From contig CM119263.1 in assembly GCA_051294375.1 (NCBI GenBank), forward strand, positions 9,912,432-9,976,431: DNA of 64,000 nucleotides, read 5' to 3'. A model generated the notes under the pieces. That model saw only the letters and a list, made by a program, of their open reading frames with translations. It had not been told where the DNA came from and did no database searches. Below, piece by piece: positions 6,001 to 57,900 of the stretch. How positions within the stretch are numbered: position 1 is the stretch's first letter; each line of letters opens with the position of its first letter. Origin of the DNA: Paraspadella gotoi (taxonomy: Eukaryota > Animalia > Chaetognatha). The translations under genes were made by a program, and so were the position numbers.

Positions 6001-9000
6001 TCTGCTCTTGCCTTTTTTTGTTCTTCATACAAGGCATAAATTTGTGTTAAACCATTCATATCTTTTTGTACCTGCAGTAAGTCGGGGTAGAGAGTAATGG
6101 GCAGGTCAAAGAGTTTTTCAGCATCAGCAAGATCTTTTTGTACATTTTCATATTTTGTAAGCTCATTCCGATAAGACTTCATTTGATCCATCCCTTTCTC
6201 CAAATCTTGAGCAACAGCACCAGGGCCTTCAGAGCAAAAGCGATTATAAAATTGGGTCAGCTCCTCCCCGAATTCTCTTATTTGTTGCAGGGTAATAGCA
6301 GCAAATTTTTTTTTTACATCTAACAAAGAAGAATCAACCACTTTGGAATCAAAAAAAAGCTTTTCCCATTCTTCATAAATAGAATTTTGCAATGCTATTT
6401 CTTCATCTAATACTGTTAAGTTGAACATAAGTAGTACTCTGTATCGCTCTTGAATGTCTAAATATTGAAATTCAACATTTAAAGTCATTTCTTTTATATC
6501 AGCAATTGTCTTTAGCACAAACTTTAAATCACTAAGGGTTTCAGGCGATTTAGAAAGATCTTCACGTTTTCCATCAATTTCCACTTTAAGAGCATATAGA
6601 TTAGTTCGAGCAGAATCATTTAATAGCTTTCCCAAAATTTGTATCCAGCCTTTAGCATGATCTCTCACAGAATCTGCTAGAGGTCCCATGTGAAGTTTGA
6701 TCATATCTTGATCTTTTGACATCGGTAATTTTTTTATTTCTTCAATAGTTCGACAATAAAATTGAAGTTGTTCATCAAACATGACAACGGTAGGGTTCTT
6801 TGCAAACCATCTATCTAAAACAGCAGATTTATCTACTTTCCAAATTTTTCTATAACGTTTCCACTTGTGTAAGTATTGCTGTAAATTAAACAACATTTTT
6901 TGGTATGTATTTTGAGTAATGTTAAAATAATTTATTGTATCAGAATTCTGAGCAATGTCAGAAAAAAATGTGAAAGTTACTAAATTATCTTCTCCATCAA
7001 CTTTTTGGGGTAGCGTTTCCAAACAAGTTCCAGTCATCCACCGAATAAATATTTTGGTACCTTCTATACAGTCACGAACACATTGCAAAAACAATTTGTC
7101 CAACTCATTTGCAGGTGGATGCAACACAACATCTGGAGCAGCCAAAAGGGTTTCCACTTGAAAAAGTTGATTACTCCCAGCCATGTCTTTGTTAAAACGT
7201 TTCAGATTACTACTAATAAGTCTTGTTAATGTCTTAAAAACTTTTGCTTCCCAGTAGGAGTAATAATTCATCATTTTTTGTGACTTACCAGTATTAGTTA
7301 AAAATACCAAACCTTCCATCTTTGTCAGCAATGGCCCAATCGCACGATATCTTTGGGCTATCACTTCAAAGTCTTTGGCTCTTTCCTTTTCAATAAATTC
7401 AAAAAATTCTTTTGCACTGGGTAAAATGGTGCCAAATTTCAAAGGAGGATACTTGAATAAATCAGTATCTTCAATCATTCTTAATCTTAAATTTATATCT
7501 TTTGCATTTTTCTGTATTTGGTTTACTAAGGATTCAAATTTAGCAATAGCCTGCTGGCACTTACCAATGAAATCAGTAATACCCAGAGAATTCCAGTTAA
7601 ATCGTTTTGAACCAGGCCGAATTACGCGACGTAATTCTTCAATGTGTTCTTGTAGTAAATCTAATTCTGCTTCTTCGAGCAAGCCTAGAATTGTGTGATA
7701 TCTGCTTAGCATGAGATTGAGACCATCAACATGTTTTATGTATTTTTCCTCTTGCAAAGCCACATTTCTTGCTAGCTCAGGTACTGCAAATCCCAAATGT
7801 TCCATATACTTAGCTTCAATTATTATTCGATTTAATTCTGGAGCAAAATTTACAACATACTTAACTTCTCTTTGTGTTCCCTGGACATCATATTCTAAGG
7901 GTTTATTGTTATCAACATTGCTAAATGTCAACATTTCATCTTGCTTTATCAACAAGTTTCGCTTTAAAAGACTAGGTAGAGTAGATTCTACTTCCTCTTG
8001 CCATTGTATGAATTTCTGCTCCTCAAAGTCTCGCATTCTTCTACCAACAACCAAGTAATTGCTTCTTGCTTCCAAAGCTTGTTCACTTTTGATCATATCA
8101 TCCATGGCTTGAAAACTAATTATTGTATGCTTAATTCTGAAAAACAATGAACGGCACCAAAATATTGATCCTGCCACTGGTGGGTGGTTTTTGTAGAGTG
8201 GAGGAGACTCTTGAAATTCGGTAAAAATAGCATCCATTTTTTCCACCTCTTTACCATATTGCAACAATATGTCATTAAATTTCATCATCATTTGATTATT
8301 TATTGACTCTCTTGATTTAATATGTTTGAAATTCAATAACATTTCGAAGGCTCCTTCAGCTGAGCGTAGTTTTTTAAAAGATTCATCTATAAAGTTCTTA
8401 GCCTCAATTTCAATACACTGTACTTCCCTGTTGAAAGCATCCATCCTAGCCCGCCAAGCCAATGATTTATGACTGATAAATGGATCAAAGGTGACCTTCT
8501 CGATGAGCAAAACTAAAGCATCAACTCGCTTTAAAACAGCTTCAATCCTTTCCGGATCTCCAGTTACGGCTTTTAACTCTGGCCCAAAAATATTATGAAA
8601 TTCTTCCAAAACTTGAGCAACATTATAAAAATCTTGGCAAATTAAAGACATGTAATCAGTTAATTCAAACAATCTTTTACGGTCAAACTCCCATCTAGAG
8701 TCTCTTCCTGAAGCTTCAATTCGAGCCCTTACCTCGAAATATGATTCGCTCCAAAGATCAAGCACTTTCTTTGCCTCACTAGTTTTTCTTTTAACTTCAT
8801 GAGGAGGATCTTCATACAAAGTTCTGACATTAATAACTCTGGCAACTCTTTCAGCAAGTTCCCACGCAATTCTCTCCATCAGGGGCACCATTCTTTCATC
8901 TCGGTTATAATGTCTGGATATAATCCACACCATTCTCAGAGCATTCATCATCGAAGGAATAGTTTCTAAAACCACATGAAAATTGGCACCAAAAGTAATA

Positions 9001-9388
9001 TTTTTAAAATGGCGTTCAAGTGTTGAAAGAAATCGAACATTATCTTTTGCTTCTGTATGAAAGTTACTAAGCTCCGCTCGATGATATTCAAAATTTTGTA
9101 CTACAACTGAATCAGCTTTCTGTAGTACTAGTAAATACTTCCTTACAATTTCTGTTTTTAATTGTTCCAGCAAAGCACTTAAAGCAGCATTTCGCTCACG
9201 CCAAAACTCAATTTCAGCAAGGGGGCCCTTTCCTTGAGGAGTCTTGTTTAACTGCAATTCTAAAGCAGATGCAACTTGCTTACCCCAATCACTAACCACA
9301 GCTTCAAGTGTTTCAATAAGTTCACTGTTACGAACATTATCAGTCATGTGATCACTTATTGGCAGCTCCGGAACATGAAGTCGAACGC
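1..9388 (-). CDS. DNAH10: Axonemal dynein heavy chain 10, exon 8: giant exon encoding tail, linker, AAA1-AAA4 and start of stalk; continues past window start
   Basis: Same reading frame checked at 9386, 4349, 2459 and 269. P-loops [10 protein letters not shown] (~4310-4335), GPTGGGKS (~3470-3490), GETGTSKT (~2440-2460), GVGGSGK (~1395-1415). Acceptor ttttttAG at 9389-9390 joins upstream IEGG to VRLHVPELP. The ORF track lists no stop-terminated ORF in this frame, consistent with it being open to the window edge. Confidence 0.95.
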
Positions 9389-9525
9389 CTAAAAAATGAG
9401 TATATTTTTTCATTTATATTTAAGAGTAAGGAAATTGTTTTAGTTTTTAATTTTATTAGAAATAAGAAGATATGTTTCTACACGCCTTCTTCAGCGCAAA
9501 ACAGATTGTTAAATTTACAAAAGAT

Positions 9526-9692
9526 GTCATTCGCCTCTCAACCCAAAGGTCCAGGGTTCTAGCGCGGTGGTCGCCTAGCAGTTAAGAGGGACGGGGCGCT
9601 TAACCCGCCTGTAACACGGTGTTACAGCCTGATCCAAAGCTGCTTATATTAAACGGTTCTGTCACTAACTCAACAATTATAACTATCTCGTC
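9526..9692 (+). mobile_element. TRIM family A LTR fragment
   Basis: Near-identical to the 3' two-thirds of the family A LTR, with a deletion in the ribozyme P4/P5 region. Confidence 0.8.
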
Positions 9693-9847
9693 ACGTGGAA
9701 CAAAACGGTATAAATTAAAGATTAGAAATGTTTATCAAACAATTCATTAAAATTTAAATGACTGACATTTTTGGTGTCATAATAAAATAACCCCGGGCTA
9801 TAAACGTTTGTAATTCATGTAAAAAAAGCTGTAAACTCATTGAATAC

Positions 9848-10100
9848 CTCCTTCAATCTGCTGTATTGTTCTAGATACAGAGGCCGAAAATTTTTGCATG
9901 TTGACAGTAAATTCGTCTCGTAACATCGCCGCTTTGTTTCGAGATTCAGTGGGTAATGATTTGTCTTCACCACCTGACGCTTGTGATGCAGTGTCTTCGG
10001 ATTGAGAAGGCGAAACTGGGCGCGTCATATCTTTGGTACTTCCCGGAATATGTTTTTCGAACGTTAAATTAGGCTGTAACTGATCCATCAAATCATTTTT
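9848..10100 (-). CDS. DNAH10: DNAH10 exon 7
   Basis: KNDLMDQ...RDEFTVNMQKFSASVSRTIQQIEG resembles the DNAH10 RDEFxxNxQKF...RTxQQxEG segment; cAG acceptor at 10101-10102, GT donor at 9846-9847; phases 0/1 fit neighbours. Confidence 0.9.
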
Positions 10101-10386
10101 CTGTAGGCATTTATAAGATGAAATGAAATTAAAAAGCTTAGGCATTTCCTACAATAATATTCCCAGTGTTATGTTACTAATAAGTTTAAAGTTTATTTAG
10201 TATTAATTTAACATTGTAAATTTTTATAGTTTTCCTTCTTCCATCCATACATCTACCCTTGGTTCCTTGCTTATTGTCTACTTACAATGAATATTTGTAT
10301 CTGAGATTGGAAATTGTGTTCTCAAAATGTGGTTACTGTTTCTGCTTTATTACATGGTTCTAAGAATACAACGTTATAGTTAAGGT

Positions 10387-15015: not shown

Positions 15016-15252
15016 TGTGGAAGACGATGCCGCGAGCAGTTTAGCGTCCGTTGCACACAAGGTCCCGAACTTCGGATCGGGCTGTAGTCCGACACTACAG
15101 GTGGGTTAGACGCCCCGTCCCGCTTTTACTTGTGTGAATCAGCAGGGCGCGAACCCGAGTCCTTTGGGTTGGGAGGACATCGTGCTACCTCCGGCGCCAT
15201 AGGTGCTGCTGATTCTCGGACGAGTAGCAGGGTATGAAATACTACCGCTACA
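15016..15252 (-). mobile_element. Solo LTR, family D (diverged relative of family A)
   Basis: TG...CA termini, CAAC TSD, tRNA-like A/B boxes (TGGCGCCGGAGG, GGTTCGCGCCC), twister-like fold at 15054-15136. Confidence 0.85.
15054..15136 (-). ncRNA. Twister-like ribozyme in family D solo LTR
   Basis: Same layout as family A with compensatory changes in P3, P4, P5 and T2 (AC:GT); predicted cleavage 15108/15107. Confidence 0.75.
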
Positions 15253-24149: not shown

Positions 24150-24516
24150 CTATTTCAATGGTTTCGTTAATAATACAGTCCTGTGCAAAATAAAGAGGAC
24201 ACCCAAAAACATAAAAATAAATCCAGTTAGATTCTGATAAAATGAAAGATATTATATGTGAATAATATTTATTGAAAAAGGAACTATTGGTATAAATTTG
24301 GTTAATCCTGACTATCCGTTACGAAGCACTGATTTTTTTTTAAAAAGTAATTACTTAGTTACAACTACTAAGTACTCAAACAGAATGTTTGATAAAAAAA
24401 TTTAAGTATTTTTAACCTCTTGTGTTTAAAGTGCTGTAGCTCTGGAATGACAGGACCGATTTTTTTTTAAAGTTGAGTTTTTAAGATTTCCTCTTTCAAA
24501 AGTCCTTATTTCCCAT

Positions 24517-25172
24517 TGAAGAGACAGTAATTATTGTTATGTGTTAATGACAGAACCGTTCAATATAAGCAGTCCCTGAGCTTTGGATCAGGTTGTAACA
24601 CCGTGTTACAGGCGGGTTAAGCGCCCCGTCCCTCTTAACTGCTAGGCGGCCACCGGGCTAGAACCCCGGACCTTTGGGTTAGGAGGCGATTGACTTGCCT
24701 CTGGCACCAATGGCTGCTGATGAACGGTTGGTGGATTTTAGTCCACCATACATCCTCCCCTCCCGTAGGGAGAAGTCTGTTGCGTCTCTTCAGTGTATTG
24801 TTGTTGTTGGTGGAATGTTCGTCACCAAGTTGAGGCATGTTGCCTGATGTGTTGTTGTCGGAAAGTGCATCGCCAGGTTGAGGGATGTCGCCTGAAAGTG
24901 TTGTTGCTGCTGTTGTGTTTGGAAGTCAGGCTCACCAATGAAGAGACAGTAATTATTGTTATGTGTTAATGACAGAACCGTTCAATATAAGCAGTCACTG
25001 AGCTTCGGATCAGGCTGTAACACCGTGTTACAGGCGGGTTAAGCGCCCCGTCCCTCTTAATTGCTAGGTGACCACCGGGCTAGAACCCCGGACCTTTGGG
25101 TTGGGAGGCGATTGACTTGCCTCCGGCACCAATGGCTGCTAATGAACGGTTGGTGGATTTTAGTCCACCATA
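24517..25172 (-). mobile_element. Complete TRIM, family A (LTR contains tRNA-like head plus twister-like ribozyme)
   Basis: Two 234-bp direct repeats (24517-24750, 24939-25172), 188-bp internal part, PBS TGGTGAGCCTGAC, PPT GGGAGGGGAGGA, CCAT TSD on both sides. Confidence 0.92.
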
Positions 25173-26461
25173 CCATTCAGAATTTAAAAAAAAAATTAAA
25201 AGACAATGCCCATAAATTAAGGCTAAAAAGTATCTTCGGTTTTTGGCAGATCTTCAAAAATGTTTTTTTGAAGCAAATCAAATGACAAATTTTTTGGAAA
25301 ATTTGTCTTTTAGGAGCGATAGCTCTTGAATGCTTGGACCGATTTTCGTTTAATTTATACATAAATTTTCCATTTAAAAATTAAGAGTCTACGTCGTTCT
25401 TAGAAATCGAGGAAGACTTTTTCAATGGAGATTTTCGTTAAAATCTGACTACCAAATAATGTCAACGCCCCTGGGAAAAATTCAGGTAAAAAATAGATGT
25501 AAAAACACTCGATTCCGATCCTGTTGCATCTGAAGGGCTCGCATTTTTTTTCTCTCGACAAATAACCATCATTTTGACATCAAACCATCAGATTCAAATG
25601 GACTGGTCCGCTCGGGAAAATATTTTCAATGCAATTTTTATATATAAAATAAAGGGATTTCTCAACTTCAATACAATGTCAACGCATTTAACATATGTTG
25701 TGATTTTACAATAAACTTCAAATTCAGGAATCCAATAGCCATATGTCTGAAGGGCTCTCAAAATTTTTCTTTACATTTTATTTGGTTATTTTGATATGAT
25801 ACGATCATGGAAAAGTGCATTAGTCCATTTTGGTGAAATTTTTATTTAAAGTAAAAGTAAAAGAGCAGCTAACGATCGGAATTCTAAGAGTTTTCAACCG
25901 GGAGTCAGATTCAGTAAAAATCTTCTATGGCGAAAATCTTCCAAAGAAGGGGTGGATTTTCCGAAGATTTTGGTTGATATTTTCTATATTTATGGTAGGA
26001 TTTTTTTGAAACTTAATATTAACAATATTGCCATCATTCTACCTTGGCCGGTATAAGAATATATTAAAAAAACCTCTGGCTTTGTTCGTCAGAGCTTAGT
26101 CCTATAAAAATCTACATTTATCATTCATTTTTTTTCATAATATGTGCTTAAAACGAGCGCTACTAAATGTTTGAAGAGTCCTTTTTTTTTTGCGCAGGAC
26201 TAACTTAGTAGGAACGAAATTTGAAAATATTAAAGATTGATTAATTGATTGAAGATTAATCGTCGAAAGGAGATAACACCACTCTGATACACGAACAAGA
26301 ACCGGCAACTTCATGGTGTTACCTCGGAGTGACTTTCTTGAAAGGATGCATTTCCCACATACGCATACTCAAGTATGAAATACATACTGATGAAGACTCA
26401 AAAAACTAGAGTCAAAACTTGAACGTTTTTTGAAATAGAAAAAAGTTTTTTGTAAACAAAT

Positions 26462-26827
26462 TGAAGAGACAGCAATTATTGTGTTAGTGGCAGAACCGTT
26501 CAATATAAGCTCTCCCTGAGCTTCGGATCAGGCTGTAAAACCGTGTTACAGGCGGGTTAAGCGCCCCGTCCCTCTTAACTGCGAGGCGACCACCGGGCTA
26601 GCACCCCGGACCTTTGGGTTGGGAGGCGAATGACTTGCCTCTGGCACCTATGGCCGCTGATGAACGGTTGGTGGATTTTAGTCCACCCTACATCCCCCCC
26701 CTCCCGTAGTCTGTTGCGTCTCTTCAGTTAATTGTTGTTGTTGGTGGAAAGTTCGTCACAAAGTTGAGTCATGTCGCCTAATGTGTTGTTGGCAGTAAGT
26801 GCTGTAGGTGGATTTTAGTCCACCATA
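26462..26827 (-). mobile_element. TRIM family A copy, 5' LTR mostly deleted
   Basis: Intact 3' LTR, PPT and part of the internal region; both outer termini kept; AAAT TSD. Confidence 0.85.
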
Positions 26828-31198: not shown

Positions 31199-32604
31199 AT
31201 TATGTTTGTGACCATATGCAGTTCGTAGGTCAATTATTTATATACACAACTATATTCAAATAAAAGCAGCAATGCAAAAATCAAAATTATCTAGAAGGTA
31301 TAATTTAACTAATCATAAATGACAAATCAGATAAACAAGATCGGTTCATCCAATGTGTTACGCAGCAGAGACTTTATTTTCACGTGTATTTCTCGTGACA
31401 TGACATGATATGACGCGACATGACATGACTACAATAACTTTCTAAGCCTGTGTATTTATGACACAAACTTCTTCGGAATTTCTTCTTTTATTCTTTATAG
31501 TTTTAGGATTTCCTGAAGGCGACGCAAGCAGTCACTAAAATTTGAGGATTTTTCCCTTCTTAACAAATGAGCAACCAAATATAAGCAAGTTATAAGCATT
31601 TTTAATGTAAGTGGGACAGACCAACGGACAGACATATCGACCGAAATACCGACCGAAAAGTGACATTTGAACCGCGAGTACTTGAGGTGCAACGAAAAAT
31701 GAATCCTACAATATTTTTATGATTTACAACAAAATTGCAAATAAGAAAATGGTTTAAAATAAGTTTTAGTTGGATCCAACCTTTGATTGTTGCTATTGTT
31801 TTGGTAATTGTGGTTGTGATAATAGTTGTGGTTATTGTGATTGCTGAAGGAGTAGTAGTTATTTTGAATGTTATGGTTATAGTAGTTATTACAGATGTAT
31901 TATATATTATAATACCTTTATGCTTTATAAAAATTGATATTCTGACCTGACTAACTTAAGTAAATTAAGTAAATTACAAACAAAACATTTAGGGCGGTCC
32001 AAAAGGTTGATAAAGTCAAGTTTAGAGTCGGGTCTCTTATAACCCGATCTGAAAACAAACTGAAAATATATTACAACAACAAATATAGGGGGCAACCGAC
32101 TTGTAGGAAAAAATTTAAAGTATATTAATACCCCCAAAAAATAATCATATGAATTTAAAAAAAAAGATCAATAGTCCAAGATCAATCCATCTATTATCAT
32201 GTATCATTGATAATAATGATCATAAATATATGATAACAATGTGATCAACATGAAATTAAAAAAATCTTAAAGGTATAGTGATCTCACCAGACGTTACTAT
32301 CAAAGAAAATTAATGAAAAAATCCGGAAAACAAATGATTGATGCGATGACAAATTATTAATGTAATAGTAATTGATAGATTGATGTAATAGTAATTGATT
32401 GATTGATGTAATAGTAATCGATTGATTGATGTAATAATAATTGATTGATGTAATAGTAATTGATAGATTGATATAATAATAATTGATTGATTCATGTAAT
32501 ACTAATTGATTATTTATTGATACGATGATAACCAAATGATTGCTGCGATGATAACCAAATGATTGATGCGATGATAAACAATGATGGATGCGATNNNNNN
32601 NNNN

Positions 32605-38689: not shown

Positions 38690-40120
38690 TCAATATTTTA
38701 ATACTTCAGAATCGAAATATTTATGAGGCTCTGCAACGGAGTTTTGATCCGGTTTTTCTGCCAATATTCCTTCAAGTAAAGGATCTGCATTCGATTCAGG
38801 CCCTCCTTCAAGTGGAGAATCTAGTTTTGAAGTTTTTGCTTCGCATGAGAAAAAACCAACATCACTGATGTCATTAGGCTGAGGAATCAAGCCTGTTTTT
38901 GTTTTTTTTCCACTTAAAGATTCCGTCGAAGGTGCCGAGTCGTCTAAAGGAGAACAATTCGCGAAATACGGCTCTACGTTGGGTCCAGAATCCAATGTAG
39001 GAACAGGAGCACCTTCAAGTGAAGTCTTTCTTTCAATTTGACAATTTCGATTGGTTTCTTCTAAATCGATTGAATGGTCTTTTATCGTTGTTGGCTTCGC
39101 ATCAATTTTTAATTCAAGCTCTTTGTCCAGTAATAATAAACTGGATTTTGAAACGAGCTCGGTTTCTTTCTTGAGAGGAGAATTTTTATTAACCTCCGAA
39201 ATTTCCTCGTATTGAGAATCCAGTTTGGATTCCGTACTGACATATGCAGCATTCATTGTAGTTACCATAATTGATTTGTTTTCGGAATCCATAAAAAAAT
39301 TTTCCTTCATATTAAAAACTTCTGGGACTTCAAAGTTTTGTAATTCAAATTTAGTTTTTACTTCTTTAAAAGAATCATCAGTTCCAGGACAATTTAAAAT
39401 GTCGTTTAAATTAGTTGGAGATGACATCGCAAGTGACTGAGCGTTCACCTTAGATTCTGTTACTTCTAATAAAATATCTAATGCAGGGGTTAGCACAAAA
39501 TCTGATGCAATATCTTTCTTGGATTCTTCGTCACAAAAAAAATTTAAATGGGAGTCTGAGGAATCCATGCTTTTCGATTTGGGATTCTGAAAAACTTCAG
39601 ATTGATTAGTAGCTTCAGAAGCCAACTCTGCAGCTTCTTTGAAGCTTCGGTCCCGCCTGAGAGAAGAATCATTCTTACAATCTAGTTTACTAATTATATT
39701 GCTTTCTGTTTCATACACCAAATTAACTCCCAGTAAGTGATCAGCCCCCCCAGATTGAGATTGTATGTTGCCTGGAGCTCGCTTATGCAAGTCATTTAAT
39801 ACCAACTCTGGTTTCTCTATAATTTTTACCATTGCCTCATCAGAAATAACCGCGCAGTGGGAAATGTGCTTAGGTTCTTCAGTCAAATTCAAATTTTCTT
39901 CCTTTAAACACGATTGTATTGTATCTTCTGAAAGCGGGACGTCCTCGAAGTCTACAGGGACTGCTGCCAAAATAGTTTCTTCTGAAATTTGAGAATCGGA
40001 CATCTCGATTTTCATTGAATCCACGCTCGCGTCGCCCGATATTTGCTGAGGGCAGCTTTCTTCAACGAAAGTTGGAGGTGAAGTTTCCTTCATCATATCT
40101 TCAGTTTCATTTTTAGCCAC
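38690..40120 (-). CDS. DPY30-domain (DYDC1/2-like) protein, exon 2: long acidic low-complexity tail
   Basis: 476-codon open frame starting directly after tttttAG (40121-40122), in phase with exon 1; E/S/D/K-rich; TGA at 38690-38692. A donor just before the stop cannot be excluded. Confidence 0.8.
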   Translation of the reverse strand: MAKNETEDMMKETSPPTFVEESCPQQISGDASVDSMKIEMSDSQISEETILAAVPVDFEDVPLSEDTIQSCLKEENLNLTEEPKHISHCAVISDEAMVKIIEKPELVLNDLHKRAPGNIQSQSGGADHLLGVNLVYETESNIISKLDCKNDSSLRRDRSFKEAAELASEATNQSEVFQNPKSKSMDSSDSHLNFFCDEESKKDIASDFVLTPALDILLEVTESKVNAQSLAMSSPTNLNDILNCPGTDDSFKEVKTKFELQNFEVPEVFNMKENFFMDSENKSIMVTTMNAAYVSTESKLDSQYEEISEVNKNSPLKKETELVSKSSLLLLDKELELKIDAKPTTIKDHSIDLEETNRNCQIERKTSLEGAPVPTLDSGPNVEPYFANCSPLDDSAPSTESLSGKKTKTGLIPQPNDISDVGFFSCEAKTSKLDSPLEGGPESNADPLLEGILAEKPDQNSVAEPHKYFDSEVLKY

Positions 40121-40267: not shown

Positions 40268-40431
40268 CTTTCAGATCGGGCTGTAACACCATGTTCTTGG
40301 CGGTTTAAGCACCCCATCCTTCTTAACTGCTAGGCAGCCACCGGACAAGAAGACCGGACCTGTGGGTTTGCGAAGCGAATGACTTGCCCCCTGTATCAAT
40401 AGACGCTGGTTGGTGATTTTAGTTCACCATA
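40268..40431 (-). mobile_element. Degenerate TRIM family A LTR fragment in the DYDC-like intron
   Basis: Colinear with the family A LTR (ctgtaacacc...tcttaactgctagg...gaatgacttgcc...caccata) with many substitutions. Confidence 0.7.
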
Positions 40432-40463
40432 ATAGAAAAATTCGACAGCTTAAAAGTTCAAAC

Positions 40464-44260: not shown

Positions 44261-45524
44261 TCCATCCCAAAACGTGAATGAAAAATGTTTAAAGTACGGA
44301 CTACCATCTACAACTCAGATGCTCTTTTATATATGTATTATGTAGGAGATATCGACGTTCGTCTCTTTCTCTCTTTTGCGGTCATTCCGGATTCTACGTT
44401 GAAACGGGACTCCTCCAAAATAACAGTTTATTCGTGGACGCACTATAAGAGCTTAGTAGGGTGGATGACGGAAAATATCACAGGGCCTCGCTATCGAGCC
44501 AGAACGACTTTCTTGTACAAGTCTGTATACATTTCGTGGATTTTATTATTTACTTGTTTATATATTTAATATTTATGCAAAATTATAATTCTCAGTGATC
44601 ATGGTCCCAAAAAGATTTAACTTTTTCTTTTTATGTTTTCCATTGGAATTTAAAAGAGTTATAGAGAACATTTTTCCTTTTTGCTATTAATTTTTTTAAA
44701 TAACTACTTTAATAATACAGTATTTTTTTAAAAAAAATTATTAACTTTTTCTTTATATTGATATCATATCATTTAGAAGAATTTCTTTTTTCAATTACTG
44801 AAAGACAATAATAATAGCAATAATAATTCTGGACAGTATTATTAAAACAAATGGAAAGAGGATTAAGGACATGCTCAATTTCTCATGGCATAACATGGCC
44901 GAGCAAGTAAGCATATGTTCTTAAAATGCTGAAGAAACATAAAAAAGCGAGAGAGAGAGAAAGATTGAGAGAAAGAGTCAGAGCGATAGAGCAAAACCAA
45001 AAGTGAAAGAGATGCGATTATGTAGTCTGTGTGTAGATCCAATAAAAATTGACAGTATAATAGAAATAACTTTGTTTTTAATGAGAGTTCTGAGTAAGAT
45101 TATGGTATGTGTTTTTCAAATACATAAGTGGGATAGACCAACAGACGGACTGACCCAACATTTTGATTGATTTGCTACTTTTGTAAAAAAAATTAAAATT
45201 TATTTAAAAAAATTAAATTTCTCTTATTTTTCTATTTAAAAATGTTTTCACTAACTTGAATCCCTTGAGACTAGATTTCTAACTTAATGAAGTCTCCTTT
45301 TAACCACAGACAAAATTTCAACTCAATTGATTCATCCAAACAAGTAATTGGACTTGAAAGCTAAAGATGGAAGGACGAACGGACAGTCTGATGTACAGAC
45401 AAATTTAATTCTCTTATATTAAACAACAGCTTAATTTGAGGAAGGTCTGATGGCGTTATTTTTTAAGAAATTTATATTATTATTATATTAATCTTATTTT
45501 TAGTTCAAATTCTATGGGAATTTA

Positions 45525-46210
45525 TGTGGATAAGGCGCTAAGTGGGCTGAAGAAGACTATCCATAACTTCTATAACCCCCTCTAGCAGACATGGAAGGGT
45601 CCAGGGCTTGGAACCAGGCTTGAGGGTTTGCCACGCCCCCAAGGCGGCTTAGGGACATCCTCAAACTTCCCGCAGGGTAGGTACCGGGTTGGGATTGAAC
45701 CGGGACCTAGTGGTCATGAGCTGATGGCTTTACTCAATGAGCCACCGGGTCACAACTGAAAGAGTCATGCTTATAGGCGGGTGAACCTAGGAAATGCCGA
45801 CTACATGCCCCCCCAGATTGTAACCCACCCTGCACTGCTTCCAGTGGAGGGAGGGGAGCAATCTTCAGCACGTCCATGGGCCTGGAATCAGAAGGTTGGA
45901 ATACGCTCGACAGGATGGGCTCACCAGTGTGGATAAGGCGCTAAGTGGGCTGAAGATGACTATCCATAACTTCTATAACCCCCTTTAGTAGCCATGGAAC
46001 GGGTCCTGGGCTTGGAACCAGGCTTGAGGGTTTGCCACGCCCCAAGGCGGCTTACGGCCGTCCTCACTCTTCCCGCACGGTAGGTACGCGGTTGGGATTG
46101 AACCCGGTACCTTGTGGTCATGAGCTGATGGCTTTACTCAATGAGCCACCGGGTCACAACTGAAAGAGTCATGCTTATAGGGGTGTGAACCTAGGCAATG
46201 CCCGACTACA
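45525..46210 (-). mobile_element. Complete TRIM, family B
   Basis: LTRs 45525-45805 and 45928-46210 (TG...CA), 122-bp internal part, PBS TGGTGAGCCCATC, G-run PPT, TTTA TSD; tRNA-like head (TGGCTCATTGAG ... GGTTCAATCCC). Confidence 0.92.
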
Positions 46211-49117
46211 TTTATGTATTTAACAGTATCTTGAGAGCTTTAAGAGATTTTGCATCAATTTTGCTAAATAAGATTTAGGAAGTAATGGCCAAGGAAAAGA
46301 AACTAAAAAAAAAAAATCAATATTAACTTTTTTTTCGACTGCATATTTTTTTCTATGAGACTACATTGCGTCCTATCTGCTGTGTCCATAGCTTAGATCG
46401 TGGAGCTCTTAAAATAGAAATATATAGCTTACTCTTTATGATGCAAGAGATAGACCAGCCATTTGTCTTTCATAAAATATAGCCTTGAATACGATTCTGC
46501 ATTTATTAAAAAAAGAAGAAAAGTATCGATTTCAATGAAGTGTTTTATACTTAAAACCAAGTTGGTTTTCTACAAGAATAAACAACAAAACATAATTATA
46601 GAATTATCTGCAAGTTCATCCGGGTCACTAATGCATTGGTCACTTAAACATGTGCATTGAGGCGATTGAAAAAAAACAAATGCAATTAATAAACCTAATA
46701 TAAACGATTGAGTCATATAGATTATGCACTAAAAACAATTATAATTGTAGTGTAATTTCGCCTTTAAATATAAAAGATAATAGAAATACATTTACTTTGA
46801 TTTAAAAACAAATATCTTTCCTGCAAACGCCCTAATGTCCATGCTCATTGAAACTATTAACATCTACAAGATAATAACATCAACAACCAATCATTGATGA
46901 GATCAATGATGTTAAAACAAGCAGAAATACACAAGATATCATAAAACTGGAGAAAGATTATATTATTTAAAACGGAAAGTATTTACAATAGGAAGAAAAG
47001 ATTATTACTACTAAGGTGCAAAGTCGCTTTTCAAACTGTACAATTAACGAGTTTATATAAAACATGATGCCGCCAATCATTCATTATTTTCAGAACTTAA
47101 AAATATAAAATTATAATTAAGAATTAGAAAATAAAAAAATTAGAGGAAAAAAGAAATAGCCCAAGGGTGCCCACTCTTTTTATCAATTACATTTTTCTGT
47201 CGTATTAGTACTAAAAACATATTAAATATGATCACGTTAATCAAGGTTTCAGTTGTTAACCGTTTCGATGATCCAAATTAAAAGGACTGCAAAAGAGATT
47301 GTTAAAAAATCCGTAAACAAAATTGGAGTTTCAATTTGTTCGTGTAAGTTTTTGATTTCAAATAAAATAAATCTCAAAAATTTCTGCACGAGAGTTGTTA
47401 ACAAGTAATCTGTACGCCATCATTTTCTCTTCTATTTCCATGTATTTACCTGAAATAAGTTCGTCAAAAGAGAATAAAACAAATGGGCTAGAAATGAGGT
47501 CATATTTTTATTTTAAGGTGATGTGAACTGGTCGACTGGCCTTTAACAAAAAAGTTTACTCATATAATAATATAAATAAACAAATTTTTTTCGGCCTAGG
47601 GTGACCGTTTTCTTTCCCAGTTGCTATAGTGTACAACACTTGTAGAACCGGCGAATAAAAAAATTGTTAAAAAAAATATTTAACCCAAGGAAAATTCTAA
47701 GGAAAAGTATTAAAAGAGTTGATAAGAAGGTAAGAATAGATACTTAATGATATTAGACAAGCTATTAAAGCAAAAATAATATACTTTTCTTCATTCATAA
47801 CTTGGGGTTTAAGACAAATTAGGACAAATTAAGACAAATTTCATCCTAATTTAGTATACTACTCTTACTTACCACCTCACCATAGCCCTATGTGAATTTT
47901 TTTTTTTTGGGGGGGTGATTACATAAAAACTTTAGAAACTTTAAGAAAGTAAAATAAAACGATTTTCCATGAATGTTTTTTTACTAACAAATGTTCAGAA
48001 AATTTGATAAAAAATAATAATGCACTCGTTTCTCGCACAAATAAATTCTTTTTAATTGAGTCAAGAGTACTCGCGGAGCAACTTTATAAGTCACTTTATG
48101 GTCGGTCGTCCGGTCGATCTGTCTTGTTTATTTTTTAAATTTTAAATTTTTAACTAGGATGATACTACATTAGGTTCATATTTAGTAGGAAGGTAAGGTA
48201 CCATAAGACCTTTATGTATTTGTACCATACACTTAGAAAAATGATGTTATGACCAAAGATTCAATATCATTCCAGTTAATAATGTTTAGCTGACTGGTAA
48301 AGCAAATGTGATAGGTGATCCAAAAATAAATACAGCATCGTTCATGTAATTCTTGGTAATTTTAGTTAGTACTTTAACAATAAGTAATTAACTATGAGAT
48401 ACTTGTTGTACATAAGTTTCGTACTCATATACTTAATCATCGGGAATTGCGTCCATGAAAAACTAATTTTGTCGAAACACCATGAACTTACCGATTATTG
48501 TTTATTTAATGTAATTGTATCAAATTATATATCATTATTTATACCAGGCTTCATATACACAGTAATATATATTATATATATGGTCTTTCGTAAATTTAAT
48601 AAACATATATGGAAATAAAAAAATTGTTCTCTTCATCTATTAATTTATCATGAAAACAAAGAAAAATTGCCTTTTAAACTTACAAAGTCTGTAAAAGCCC
48701 GTTATAAATAAATTGAATCAATAAATGATCGTAAAAACCCTCCGGTCAAATATCATATTTCGTAAAATAATTGAAAATAATTGGAAAACAATTGATTCTA
48801 TAAAAATACTTATATCTCTTTTCTAACTATAAACTTGAAAAATCTCTTGTGAGGTGAAACTGAAAGGGAAAGTTAGTCAAATAGGAAGAACAAAGTGTCT
48901 GAACTGTAAAGAACAACCCGAGTTTTAATAAATGTTATAGTAATTTTTAGCTATTTAAACCTTTGAAAAAAAAATAGGGGAATCTGTATTTATAAATGTA
49001 TAAGGCAAGCGTTGTTTCTATTCAAAATCAGAAATCAGTCTCTAAAGTCCAGCTACGTATTGGTGACTGGATAAGGAACTAAAACACAATGTCCAGTTTT
49101 AATTAGGCGACTTGGCA

Positions 49118-49235: not shown

Positions 49236-49368
49236 CTAAAAAAAAAGTAAATTAAATTGAGATGTACATATAAAACTGTATAACTATTATCATTTATCAA
49301 ACGAGTTCACGTCAAAGACCACATATTGTAAATCGCTTTAGAGCTTTACTATACGGAAAAATATATAC

Positions 49369-49604
49369 TGTGGAGGTATATTCACACCGCCTCACATCCA
49401 CCATCGTTAAGCCAATCCCATTGGCTCAGAGGGGGAACACACCATCCCAAGCGTTGTGTTCCATCCACAGTCCTAACGTCTTCCCTGTGTTGGCAAAGCG
49501 AGACCGTCCTCGGGTAACCGCGCCAGGGGTGCCACTGAGGGTCGGAAGCCCCTAAAACCAACAGTGAGATGCCCCATCCCAATGGGCAGCCCGGCTGTGC
49601 CAAA
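49369..49604 (+). mobile_element. Solo LTR, TRIM family C
   Basis: Colinear with 56777-57032; imperfect TSD ATAC/GTAC. Confidence 0.85.
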
Positions 49605-50803
49605 GTACCCAATAAATTGTACAATTTTTTTCAGGTATTCCCAAAATTTATCTTGGCTAAATTTTACTTTCGCCGACCGCGGTTATGGCAGTTTTTGAAA
49701 AACCATTTAAAAATACTTATTTAAAAAAAAATTTAAAAAAATATTACCAAATTACCCTAAACTCTTTTAACCCTAACCACTAAGGCGTAGTGAAAGTTAC
49801 ATACGAAAATTCTAAAAGTCAATTATGAACAACATACTATCAGTGAACATTAATTTGTAAAAAAGATTAATTTTATGCTTTTTAATTTTCGCAGTAGGCT
49901 ATATTTATATATAGTACTATCCTTATAAAATCGAAAAATTTCAAAATAAGCTCATCTTAATTTTGATTGCAGATTTGAATTCCTCGTCAAAAGTTGATAA
50001 AAGAAAATATAAATCATTTTTAAAAATTCTTTCATTAAGTGGGTTAAAAATTAAAAAAACTATATTTAATATATAAAAAGTTAATTTTCAGCTTAAAATA
50101 TAGCTTTTTCTAATTTTTGACCCACTTAATGAAGGAATTTTTCAAAAAGAGTTATATTTCTTTTTATCAACTTTTTATGACGAATCCAAATCTGCAAAAA
50201 AATCTTAGAAAAAAACTGTTTTGAAATTTTAACATTTATTGATTTAGTACTAGTATAAATATGGCCTACTGTGTAAATTGTAAAATTTATTATAAATTTT
50301 TTTATTACATAAATGTTTATTAATATAATGTTGTTTGTTCCTCACTTTTAGAATTTTAATTAAAGTTAAATTTAGAAATTTTACTACGCCTTACTAACCA
50401 CCCCATAATCACTCCTAACCCTAACCCCTCCCTAACCCCGGTCGGCGAAAGTAGATTTAACCCATTATCTACTGTTAGTATTTTTCATTTGCTCTTTTGT
50501 ATGCACCTCACGGTTCCTTTTTACATCGATTTAATCGGCATGGAGTGCACAAGAATGAGATGTACCTACTATATCTTTTCACTTGCATTTCTTTACACAA
50601 AATTTTTTTCATTTTTCAAGCCTAATTTCCCAGAATTCGAAAACAAAATAGCACTTCTGATTTATTTTAAATGATCAAGTGATTAATTATAAATTATAAT
50701 TTATATAATATTATTTAACCGCAATAACAGTTGAGGTCAATCCCATACATACGCCTGCATTGGTTACTACGTACATGACTATTCTCTCTAATTTTAAACC
50801 AAC

Positions 50804-51450
50804 CTGATGTCTCCGTTGTCGTCTTTAGGGGCCGATCGTGGGAGTAGCTTTAACTTGGGTCTGGCCGCGGCCTCTTCCGCCGTAGGTTCTCGTAAATCGT
50901 CGAAGTTTGCTCCCCTGCCGCTCTCCCTTCTCGGTCTACCCCCAGATCCCCGACTGAAACCCCCACCACTTCCTCCGGATTCCCTCCTAGCTCGGTTTTC
51001 CCCCGTAGGCCCGCGTCCGCCAAAATTTCCCCGAGTTCCGCCCCCACGATAGTTTTCCCTGCTTCCGTAGCCGCCTCCTCCGAAACCTCTGCTACCGCCG
51101 AAATCGTCTCTGATCGATGGCATGTCTCTCCCCTGCGAGCCACCACGATCTTCGAATCCCACAGGGGGGCCGCCAGGCGGAGATCGGTAGTCTCTGTCGC
51201 CAACCATAGGGGGACCACCAACGGCACCGCGTCCGCCGCCTATACCACGGCTACCGCCGCGGCCGGCCACCCCGGGACCTCGCTGATCCTTACGTCCTTC
51301 GGCAACGTCGACGCGGATGTTCTTGTCTTCGAAGAGTGCGCCGTCGAAAGAGAGGGCATCTTTCAAAGATTCTCGAGTATCGAACTCCACGTAACAAAAT
51401 CCCTTGAACTTGTCCGTATCACGATCTCGCACCAGCCGGACGTTTTTAAC
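50804..51450 (-). CDS. EIF4H: eIF4H exon 5: RRM second half, RGG-rich region, [10 protein letters not shown] motif
   Basis: [23 protein letters not shown] (RNP1) ... [10 protein letters not shown] ... [12 protein letters not shown]; ctgcAG acceptor, GTtggt donor. Confidence 0.95.
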
Positions 51451-52004
51451 CTGCAGAAAAACATTCGGATTTAACTTCCTTGAGGGGTATTGAAGACGTG
51501 AAGAAATAGAGGGAAAATAATGGTATATTTCGCGAAGAGTAGAAACGAGAGAATGTATCGCAAGACAAAATATACTGACGGGCGGGAGGAGGAGGAAAGA
51601 AGAGGAAGAGGAGAATTGGACGGCAGGCTAAATCCTCCTCTGACTTCAAATTTTAATTAAAATTGAATGAGAACAAGTTTGAGCAAACAATGCCTCATCT
51701 GTTCACGATAATTTAGCGGTAAATAGCTAATCAGATAATGAACTAATTATTCAAATAATTATTTAATAATTAATAACTATTATAATTTCTAATATTTAAT
51801 GAGTTAAGCATCAGCAGAAGATTAATTAATTAATCATCCGATCGATTACATTATTCAATTACAGTAATTAAGGGTTACCTTTACTTTCACCGACCGGGGT
51901 GAGGGAGGGGTGAGGGAGGGATTAGGGTGAAGAGTGGTTTAAGTGTAGTTTAGGGTTAGGGGTAGTTAAGGGTGGTTAAGGGTTATATCTTTTAAAATTT
52001 TTTG

Positions 52005-52181
52005 CTACGCCCCCAAGGCGGCTTAGGGACATCCTCAAACTTCCCGCAGGGTAGGTACCGGGTTGGGATTGAACCCGGTACCTAGTGGTCATGAGCTGAT
52101 GGCTTTACTCAATGAGCCACCGGGTCACGACTGAAGGTGTCATGCTTAGAGGCGGGGTGAACTTTGCTATGCCCGACTACC
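52005..52181 (-). mobile_element. TRIM family B LTR fragment
   Basis: Near-identical to 45630-45805; truncated inside ribozyme P3. Confidence 0.8.
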
Positions 52182-55828: not shown

Positions 55829-56287
55829 TATGGTGGACCAAAATCCACCAACGTTCATCAGCGGCCATTGGTGCCGGAGGCAAGTCATTCGCCTCCCAAC
55901 CCAAAGGTCCGGGGTTCTAGCCCGGTGGTCGCCTAGCAATTAAGAGGGACGGGGCGCTTAACCCGCCTGTAACGCGGTGTTACAGCCTGATCCGAAGCTC
56001 AGGGACTGCTTATATTGAACGGTTCTGTCACTAACACAACAATAATTACTGTCTCTTTATTGGTGAGCCCGACTTCCGAACACAACAGCAACAACAACAC
56101 TTTCAGGCGACATGCCTCAACCTGGCGATGCACTTTCCTTCAACAATACATCAGGCGACATGCCTCAACTTGGTGACGAACTTTCCACCAACAACAAGAA
56201 TTCACTGAAGAGACGCAACAGATATCTCCTTATCTGCTTATATTGAACGGTTCTGTCACTAACACAACAATAATTACTGTCTCTTCA
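55829..56287 (+). mobile_element. TRIM family A copy, 3' LTR mostly deleted
   Basis: Full 5' LTR 55829-56059, PBS TGGTGAGCCCGAC at 56061, internal region, last ~55 bp of 3' LTR; ATAG TSD. Confidence 0.88.
55935..56010 (+). ncRNA. Twister-like ribozyme (P5 permutation) in family A LTR
   Basis: AGCAATT-AA-GAGG-GA-CGGG-GCGCT-TAA-CCC-GC-CTGTAAC/GTTACAG-CCTGA-TCCG-AAGC-TCAGG-GACTGCT; pseudoknots T1 TCCG:CGGG and T2 GC:GC; predicted cleavage 55959/55960. Confidence 0.75.
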
Positions 56288-56326
56288 ATAGATTAATTAA
56301 TTGAATAATTATTTTAATTAATGTAG

Positions 56327-57032
56327 TGTGGCGGTATATTCACACCGCCTCACGTCCACTCATGCCTTCAGCCAAATCCATTGGCTCAGAGGGGAACACA
56401 CCATCCCAGGCGTAGTGTTCCATCCACAGTCCTAACGACTTCCTCTGCATTGGCAAAGCGAGACCGTCCTAGGGTAACCGCGCAGTGACTGAAGCCGTCA
56501 CTGAGGGTCGGAAGCCCCCAAAGCCAACAGTGAGATGCCCCATCCCAATGGGCATCACAGGCAACCCGGCTGTTGCCATAAGTGGTGAGCCCTACTATCG
56601 AACACGCAACCTTCTCAGGGTACGCTATGACAAACGCCTATGCCCCTGGGGTACGCTACGACAAACGCCTATGCCCCCACAACTCGCGCTCTCTCTCTCT
56701 CTCCCACTATGGTAACAGTCTTGTCAGACACCTCTCAGGCTTGAGGAACCTGAGTGATGTCTTGACCCGGGGATCCTGTGGCGGTATATTCACACCGCCT
56801 CACGTCCACCATCCTTCAGCCAAATCCATTGGCTCAGAGGGGGAACACACCATCCCAGGCGTAGTGTTCCATCCACAGTCCTAACGACTTCCCTCTGCGT
56901 TGGCAAAGCGAGACCGTCCTAGGGTAACCGCGCCAGTGACTGGAGCCGTCACTGAGGGTCGGAAGCCCCCAAAGCCAACAGTGAGATGCCCCATCCCAAT
57001 GGGCATCACAGGCAACTCCGGCTGTTGCCATA
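56327..57032 (+). mobile_element. Complete TRIM, family C
   Basis: LTRs 56327-56580 and 56777-57032, 196-bp internal part, PBS TGGTGAGCCCTAC at 56583, GTAG TSD. Confidence 0.92.
56899..56979 (+). ncRNA. Twister-like ribozyme in family C LTR (other copies at ~56449-56528 and ~49489-49562)
   Basis: GTTGGC-AAA-GCGA-GA-CCGT-CCTAGGG-TAA-CCGC-GC-CAGTGAC/GTCACTG-AGGG-TCGG-AAGC-CCCC-AAA-GCCAAC; predicted cleavage 56925/56926. Confidence 0.7.
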
Positions 57033-57900
57033 GTAGCTTGCATTTAAAACAAAAAAACAATCAAATAGTGAAACAGGTTTTTTGTTTTTTCCATTTAAAC
57101 TTATTCCATCGAAACTTGATTTCCTGCTTAATCACACACCTTCCTACTTACATTAAAAATTTCAATCAATCGCACGATCCATTTATGAGTAATTAGCGTT
57201 CAAAGCTAAGGGGGGATGGACAGACGGACGGATGAACATTTTTTGGGGCATAATTTTCTATAATTTGATGTTCTGAAATGATATAAGTGACTTACCAACT
57301 TATTTCCACTCGCATAATTCCATCGAAACTTTATACCCAGCTAAATGACACACTTTCCTACCCACACACAAAATTTCATTCCAAGTTTTTTGCTAAGGAC
57401 AGACATCGATTTTTTTTTTTTTTTTGCATAATTAGTCATAATTTGATCTGCTGTAAGCAGATCCAGCTAAAAATAACGATAATACTGATATTGCCTGAAA
57501 GTCATTATTAAGAAAAAATTTCTAGAAATTAAATTCAAAATATCGTATAATAAAGGGTGAGAACTTCGACATCGTGGTCTTGGAAAAAAGATTAAGCAAC
57601 ACAGTTCAGCACAATATGTTAACTGACAATAACATTGGGACACACTGTAAATTTGCTGCACATCTTTTAATTCTGGTTGATTTTATTTAAAAATAATTTA
57701 TATTATTTTATGTGTAAAATATTTTGTCAGTATTCCTGATTATTGATGAATGATAAATCCGTTTAAATTTTTTACGATTCTATCAAGCGAGAAAGAGTTT
57801 TTGCCTCTTGAATCTTTTTGCTTTCACGATCTTGTTAGTCCTGCGATGATATTATATAGATAGCAGTGAATGACAAAATACAGTACTTTTGTTTCCTTAC

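Follow-up and report, generated by a model that had tools for sequence, protein, structure and literature searches.

According to the available text of Kojima (2024, PMC10886601), Helenus (TRIMp3) is a TRIM shorter than 1 kb without coding capacity, which has a PBS, a PPT and, in each LTR, tRNA-like A and B boxes; animal Helenus elements make a 4-bp target site duplication (TSD), and most of the LTRs end a few tens of bases past the B box, often in T-rich sequence. The TRIMs of the window, that is, the whole stretch of 64,000 nucleotides analysed here, fall into four families (A, B, C and D) that likewise have a 4-bp TSD, and the PBS shared by families A, B and C is close to the tRNA-Trp type of Helenus. 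Family B, the subject of this study, shows every Helenus feature examined, namely LTRs, size, A and B boxes, PBS, PPT and 4-bp TSD. It differs from most Helenus LTRs in the stretch after the B box, which is about 165 nt long, holds a twister-type motif and is without T4 runs. The word 'twister' has no occurrence in the available text of PMC10886601, and in the Helenus consensus file, where line breaks can hide motifs, five of the twister L4 motifs searched have no match and a sixth has two, both unrelated.

It has been reported that the LTR retrozymes of plants (Cervera et al. 2016, PMC4918200, available text) carry a ribozyme in both LTRs, have a PBS, a PPT and a 4-bp TSD, and lack an ORF. 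Family B shares these features, with the ribozyme motif in both of its LTRs, and likewise a unit-length RNA without terminal repeat is predicted for it. The plant elements are 1-1.5 kb long, contain type III hammerheads and are described, in the available parts of PMC4918200 and PMC7761336, without an internal Pol III promoter, whereas the present element is from an animal, combines a twister with a tRNA-like head and has circles that are only predicted. At family level the features of an LTR retrozyme are present except for the hammerhead, of which the Rfam searches gave no match in the family B element; in this copy, the motif of the 3′ LTR is crippled.

Type-P5 twisters (Rfam RF02684; PMC5408937, available text) have the same block order, together with G-A, UAA, GC, L4, T1, T2, P3, P4 and P5; the window motifs differ from them in that P1 is a loop-less palindrome of 6-8 nt, P2 is bulged and the score is far below the Rfam threshold. 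A palindromic helix at the cleavage site, by which two copies complete each other, is also known from the minimal type I hammerheads that act as dimers in Penelope-like elements and in animal retrozymes (PMC4209133 and PMC6765202, in their available parts), which belong to another ribozyme class and another element class, and for which the dimer is experimental whereas here it is predicted. In Schistosoma mansoni, the T-variant twisters of Perere-3 likewise lie in an animal retrotransposon; in the available text of PMC8501958 they are of type P1, single, and situated at the 5′ end of a non-LTR element, and their P1 is completed by target DNA. In the literature searched, with subscription journals and the original twister paper mostly outside it, there was no twister-bearing TRIM, no twister LTR retrozyme and no natural dimeric twister. 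The combination of a Helenus-type TRIM, a twister-type retrozyme and a predicted dimer-dependent P1 is real and apparently undescribed.

Table 1. Positions of the family B element, its parts and related copies in the window.
Feature	Position	Strand	Remark
Full TRIM element, family B	45525-46210	-	686 bp, TG...CA ends
Upstream TSD	46211-46214	-	TAAA, 4 bp
Downstream TSD	45521-45524	-	TAAA, 4 bp
5′ LTR	45928-46210	-	283 bp
3′ LTR	45525-45805	-	281 bp
tRNA-like head, 5′ LTR	46094-46148	-	A box, CAT-containing loop, B box
A box, 5′ LTR	46148-46137	-	
CTCATGA loop, 5′ LTR	46124-46118	-	
B box, 5′ LTR	46104-46094	-	
tRNA-like head, 3′ LTR	45691-45744	-	
A box, 3′ LTR	45744-45733	-	
CTCATGA loop, 3′ LTR	45720-45714	-	
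B box, 3′ LTR	45701-45691	-	
Internal non-coding region	45806-45927	-	122 bp; PBS at start, PPT at end
Primer-binding site TGGTGAGCCC	45917-45926	-	likely tRNA-Trp
G-rich polypurine tract (G-run)	45814-45808	-	closes the internal region
Type-P5 twister fold, 5′ LTR	45999-46076	-	
P5, 5′ LTR	46076-72/46003-45999	-	
P2, 5′ LTR	46069,67,66 with 46049,50,51	-	46068 bulged
G-A, 5′ LTR	46065-64	-	
T1, 5′ LTR	46063-61/46016-14	-	
P1 segment CGGCCG, 5′ LTR	46055-46060	-	loop-less, self-complementary; predicted dimer interface
U^A site, 5′ LTR	46054/46053	-	
T2, 5′ LTR	46048-47/46011-10	-	
P3, 5′ LTR	46046-40/46029-23	-	
P4, 5′ LTR	46022-18/46009-05	-	5 bp
U^A site, 3′ LTR	45651/45650	-	
Predicted monomer between the U^A sites	45651-46053	-	403 nt
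Crippled twister of 3′ LTR ('weak P2')	45595-45673	-	minority letters in P2, P1, P4
Competing hairpin in 3′ LTR	45666-45618	-	19 bp
Truncated family B LTR	52001-52180	-	all five crippling letters of the 3′ LTR
Family A TRIM	55830-56290	+	TSD ATAG, P1 GGCGCT, U^A 55959
Family A TRIM, two LTRs	24515-25175	-	TSD ATGG; U^A sites at 25041 and about 24619, spaced by 422 nt
Family C TRIM	56327-57033	+	TSD GTAG; P1 of both LTRs TCCTAGGG; U^A sites at 56475 and 56925, spaced by 450 nt
Family D solo LTR	15017-15252	-	approximate limits; TSD GTTG, P1 GGCGTC, U^A 15108

The family B element and the other families

The element at 46210-45525 is a real TRIM of the Helenus type. The earlier note had placed TRIM family B at this locus, and at these limits TAAA is duplicated on both sides (Table 1). 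Its two LTRs differ at 22 of 284 alignment columns, and no ORF of at least 100 aa overlaps the element in the ORF check of the window. The PBS TGGTGAGCCC is common to families A, B and C and, judging by its letters, is likely of the tRNA-Trp type; that of family A has 12 of the 13 letters of the tRNA-Trp type in Fig. S2 of Kojima (PMC10886601, available part). A joint from 46211 to 45809, considered as a tandem array, was rejected, being an ordinary PPT-LTR junction. Family B is abundant, with 7153, 2269 and 531 contigs matched in three runs of the same organism, where the last run (X9) is possibly RNA and was not counted as evidence of expression, and where summed contig depth was not taken as copy number; small shares in three biofilm metagenome runs were left out.

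The tRNA-like segment proposed before, with its A box, CTCATGA loop and B box, was located motif by motif on the minus strand. The family B heads have a TGGCT A box and a GGTTC B box, the 3′ half of the A box making two departures from the consensus, and ARAGORN called no functional tRNA in them. There are no T4 runs inside any of the four elements checked, and the first one downstream of family B is at 45315. This absence is weak evidence, because families B and C lack T4 runs on the other strand too.

Family D, near 15.1 kb, was revealed by the phage-based covariance model described below and apparently stands outside families A-C of the earlier work; it has compensatory changes in T2 (AC:GU) and in P4. 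At T1 and T2, families A and D have the same letters as three phage loci, the real-looking ones among the 121 matches listed in a loose viral scan. Further decayed or partial copies of family A lie at 40270-40434, 9526-9693 and 26460-26802; the twister of the copy at 26559 looks intact, and the other partial copies do not pass the descriptor. In a solo LTR of family C at 49363-49600 (+), the P1 palindrome is altered by a single change in its middle, the self-duplex having -6.1 as against -11.0 kcal/mol.

The twister-type fold and its P2

The LTR motif of family B has the conserved G-A, U^AA, GC and L4 nucleotides in the P5 order, and its sequence supports a twister-type fold for which self-cleavage is predicted. 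The strict descriptor, consisting only of GA, T1 pairing, UAA, GC, P4 and the L4 loop, has seven matches in the window, every one of them inside a TRIM LTR, where a shuffled window gives 0.1 on average (30 shuffles); the relaxed descriptor gives nine distinct sites, of which eight lie within TRIM LTRs and the ninth is an A+T-rich chance site, and a shuffle gives 1.3. In Rfam there is no match at gathering score for the family B ribozyme, the Twister-P5 model giving 16.6 bits (E=1.2) on the 5′ LTR against a gathering score of 37.6 bits. A covariance model was built from eight phage/metagenome twisters, none taken from the window, and returned 12 matches at E up to 5, ten of which are TRIM twister sites. 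Its top match is the 5′ LTR of family B (21.9 bits, E=0.004), and the 3′ LTR has 14.3 bits; a low-complexity false match ranks second, and nine of the ten true matches have E above 0.05. Descriptor and covariance model both support the previous claim of a twister-type fold after the tRNA-like head, and the 403 nt between the U^A sites agree with the monomer length predicted then. The stability of this monomer is ordinary (z=-0.75).

Covariation was counted in seven of the ten cores, those of families A, B and D; family C was omitted because MAFFT misaligned it. Of 160 cells 95% pair, and 12 of the 23 pairs change on both sides, including two of the three pairs of T1 and one of the two pairs of T2. 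Such pairing was reached in none of 500 shuffles, and slid registers pair at 24-48%. This is support and not proof, because the structure was read from the same sequences and only three lineages are involved; all of the covariation comes from a single genome and from three or four lineages in it.

Some details of the fold differ from those drawn in the earlier note. Its ribozyme string, with TTT before GAGGA and with TGTCCC, is present on the minus strand, but in the 3′ LTR only, and the 5′ LTR differs from it at five positions. T1, described as a third compensatory version (TTCC:GGA), does pair through GGA, but is a 3-bp UCC:GGA helix, which is not unusual since it is common in phage twisters. 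The pairing GGAAG/CTTCC proposed for P5 gives way to that of Table 1, which is better, with pair probabilities of 0.93-1.0.

P2 consists of 3 bp plus one bulged base in family A, in the 5′ LTR of family B and in family D, and of two of the three pairs in the 3′ LTR; a P2 of four Watson-Crick pairs is absent from all of these. With other letters, the P2 of families A and D pairs at 3/3 positions with the bulge and at 2/3 without it. An alternative register, with a C49-type bulge in the 5′ strand, was rejected, because it would consume T2 and misfits family A. The previous statement that P2 pairs poorly holds for the 3′ LTR, but not for the family majority and the 5′ LTR, which keep the bulged 3-bp P2; that is to say, the majority letters of the family do not give the consensus without P2 pairing that would have spoken against the ribozyme. 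In the 5′ LTR core, where variant reading was judged sound for 46021-46069 only, 16 positions vary at 1% or more. Five of them reach 4% or more in run X1, three in the P3 loop and the others at 46068 and at 46051, where the variant turns a G.U into an A-U pair in P2, so that four of the five common variants fall in the P3 loop or the bulge (P=0.004, with 10 of the 49 positions free). Between P4 and P5, family B has an insertion of one base at 4-10%.

For comparison, 25 well-formed phage/metagenome P5 cores were chosen from 98 loci by complete P2, T1 and P4. Ten of them have a 3-nt 5′ strand of P2, all unbulged, and none of the retained cores has a bulged P2. The P2 probability is 0 in the monomer fold of family B, in contrast to 0.60-1.0 in all ten phage cores with 3-bp P2 and cis P1. 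In the available text of PMC5408937, P2 is given as 4 bp, and an altered length may disturb the active site. As far as the sequences tell, the family architecture of a 3-bp bulged P2 and a loop-less palindromic P1 is a real structural variant, and it is called a twister variant because the core and both pseudoknots are kept while the 4-bp P2 and the cis P1 fail. Type-P5 twisters with a covarying 3-bp P2 were also observed in the phage/metagenome loci L043, L045, L046, L048, L051, L053, L054 (two), L093, L098, L182, L204 and L205; three of these twisters have T1 CCG:CGG with T2 AC:GU, and the two of L054 are in tandem.

The palindromic P1 and the weak 3′ LTR copy

In the window families the P1 segment, at 6 or 8 nt, is too short to hold a loop, and it is fully self-complementary in each of them (CGGCCG in B, GGCGCT in A, GGCGTC in D and TCCTAGGG in C), the exceptions being the weak B lineage and the solo C LTR with one change. 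The self-complementary background in these elements is 3.5% of 6-mers and 1.5% of 8-mers, and among even-length chance linkers 1 of 25 is self-complementary. In all 25 phage/metagenome P5 cores the P1 segment is 14-30 nt long (median 23), mostly a clear hairpin. The central P1 pair covaries across the families (G-C, C-G or U-A), and it is made of adjacent bases, for which no pairing in cis is possible. The CGGCCG self-duplex has -10.7 kcal/mol, against +4.1 for a forced cis hairpin; over all families the self-duplexes range from -8.3 to -11.0 and the forced cis hairpins from +3.6 to +5.6 kcal/mol. In family B, P1 does not form as a cis hairpin, while a trans 6-bp self-duplex is possible and is lost in the 3′ LTR.

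The strand-swapped dimer is nested and beats two twister-shaped monomers by 10-16 kcal/mol, where dimer energies are used as dimer-minus-monomer differences only. Free co-folding, in which pseudoknots are unscored, gives the swapped dimer for D only, and leads B and A to other, more stable dimers. A second self-complementary stretch at 46046-46032 (-), formed by the P3 5′ strand and loop of B, dominates the co-folding of B, where it may act as a further contact of the dimer or form a competing fold. In dimeric hammerheads, a short palindromic helix III permits cleavage of the dimer and spares monomeric circles (PMC4209133, available part). The palindromic P1 with its covarying central pair in four families, set against the P1 of the phage cores, predicts strand-swapped dimeric cleavage for the window twisters. 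As to twisters without P1, they are stated to cut at a near wild-type rate in the available text of PMC5408937, and their cleavage is termed inefficient in that of PMC8501958; since P1 is reported to be dispensable in the former, twister monomers may cut. A metagenome scan for short-P1 twisters yielded 44 loci, which were for the most part chance matches, with a few ordinary twisters among them, and which served as the null; by eye no related TRIM was among them, and the scan found no relatives of the window twister TRIMs in other organisms.

In the 3′ LTR of family B, five changes break the P1 palindrome and one P2 pair, and a sixth makes a P4 mismatch. The run X1 depth that differs from the 3′ LTR is 96% at 45664, 73% at 45665, 89% at 45655, 81% at 45652, 55% at 45657 and 76% at 45603 (among the 40 of 159 rows listed). 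On the readable 5′ LTR core (46021-46069), no variant at 1% was present at the three 3′-LTR transversion positions in any of four runs, and in public runs the weak letters account for less than about 1% of the depth of the family. The fold of the 3′ LTR contains no twister helix above 0.01 probability; the competing hairpin pairs at 19/19 positions with the 3′ LTR letters against 15/19 with the 5′ LTR letters, and 0.9% of 20,000 random five-change sets fold equally well, in a test picked after the fold was seen; the hairpin may be a selected off-switch or a product of chance. The weak version is a small sub-lineage, because the fragment at 52001-52180 shares the five letters with the 3′ LTR, although the two are unlike at 16 of 181 columns. 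The weak letters may have reached one LTR of 46210-45525 by conversion or template switching. From its predicted fold, the weak 3′ LTR version, a rare variant, probably cannot fold as a twister and is probably dead, and the insertion would then fail at its 3′ cleavage site. The former choice between a decayed ribozyme and a structural variant thus comes out as both, decayed in the 3′ LTR copy and a structural variant at family level.

Proposed cycle, rival readings and surroundings

The TRIM anatomy, the twister nucleotides, the covarying helices, the palindromic P1 of four families and the rarity of the weak letters are direct observations. We consider it fairly likely that family B is a tRNA-headed mini LTR retrotransposon with a conserved type-P5 twister fold in each LTR, which would cleave as a strand-swapped dimer and release an RNA of 403 nt to be circularised and reverse-transcribed, the weak 3′ copy being rare and probably inactive. 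By analogy with plant retrozymes (PMC4918200, available part), Pol III would start at the 5′ tRNA-like head and read through both LTRs, after which the palindromic P1s of two twisters, either in the two LTRs of one transcript or in two transcripts, would pair, so that each active site would be built from two copies. Both U^A sites would then be cut, and the piece of 403 nt (422 in A, 450 in C), without terminal repeat, would be closed into a circle by a host ligase. A Gypsy reverse transcriptase, primed at the PBS, would copy around the circle and rebuild the LTR-internal-LTR DNA; the circle, carrying one palindrome only, would resist re-cutting. A wider reading, which we hold tentatively and which falls a little short of probable, is that this animal lineage has a radiation of Pol III-driven LTR retrozymes with an obligate dimeric twister, whose palindromic P1 joins the two LTR ribozymes of one transcript, so that the unit-length RNA is cut out and a cleavage-proof circle is left.

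The twisters might instead be active as ordinary monomers with a minimal P1 of 1-2 bp, in which case the palindromes would be remnants of a shrunken hairpin and the retrozyme-like cycle would be unchanged. The near wild-type activity after P1 deletion (PMC5408937, available text) is consistent with this, and the 5′ LTR monomer folds P5 at 0.93-1.0, P4 at 0.80-0.89 and P3 at up to 0.65; we nevertheless regard it as rather unlikely, since the central P1 pair covaries though its adjacent bases cannot pair in cis, the cis hairpins have to be forced at the positive energies given above, and the monomer of B does not form the P2 that all ten phage cores form. It is also improbable that the twister only trims a linear Pol III transcript, by removal of the tRNA-like leader or end definition, while the element moves as a standard TRIM whose RNA keeps its terminal repeat and forms no circle. 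End processing is the role of twisters that stand at the start of non-LTR elements (PMC8501958, available text), and the circle here is a prediction only, but cuts at the same site in both LTRs leave no terminal repeat, which is the argument for circles in plant retrozymes (PMC4918200, available part).

Very improbable, in our estimation, is a motif that is a catalytically dead relic throughout, carried by recent amplification, with the weak-P2 lineage as a sign that activity is unneeded. The weak letters occur in two separate window insertions, so that the weak-P2 lineage was copied at least once, and P2 is imperfect in all families; against this, the catalytic letters are invariant, both pseudoknots covary among diverged families, the common variants avoid the core, and less than about 1% of depth belongs to the weak lineage.

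LTR retrozymes are known mainly from plants, with hammerheads, Helenus has been described without a ribozyme, and no natural dimeric twister came up in the literature searched; family B would join all three. If the wider reading above is true, LTR retrozymes would be on record for the first time from animals and for the first time with a twister, and the double hammerhead would have its counterpart among twisters. Family B allows a direct test of whether one ribozyme class can replace another in the retrozyme cycle, and it bears on the regulation of twisters by dimerisation, as in hammerheads, and on the question whether LTR elements driven by Pol III give rise to circular RNAs in animals. The four natural families and the one natural, probably dead variant in the window are ready-made assay pairs, and since the class is missed by Rfam, more may hide in invertebrate genomes.

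As for the rest of the window, a probable multi-exon coding region lies at about 300-10150 (-), whose short peptides presumably recall a dynein heavy chain. At 38690-40120 (-) there is an acidic open frame of 476 aa, and at 50794-51627 (-) an eIF4H-like exon, the named matches of which are all metazoan, marking the window as animal DNA, and the closest relatives of which are unnamed proteins with 58-61% identity. Dense non-coding interspersed repeats are present in many copies over 11400-63900; inside them are tandem arrays with units of 18, 23 and 59 nt as well as runs of GACGGACAGACA/ATTA, and we take the interspersed repeats to resemble Helitron- or MITE-type elements. An assembly gap of 10 N is situated at 32595-32604, within a 23-nt tandem array.
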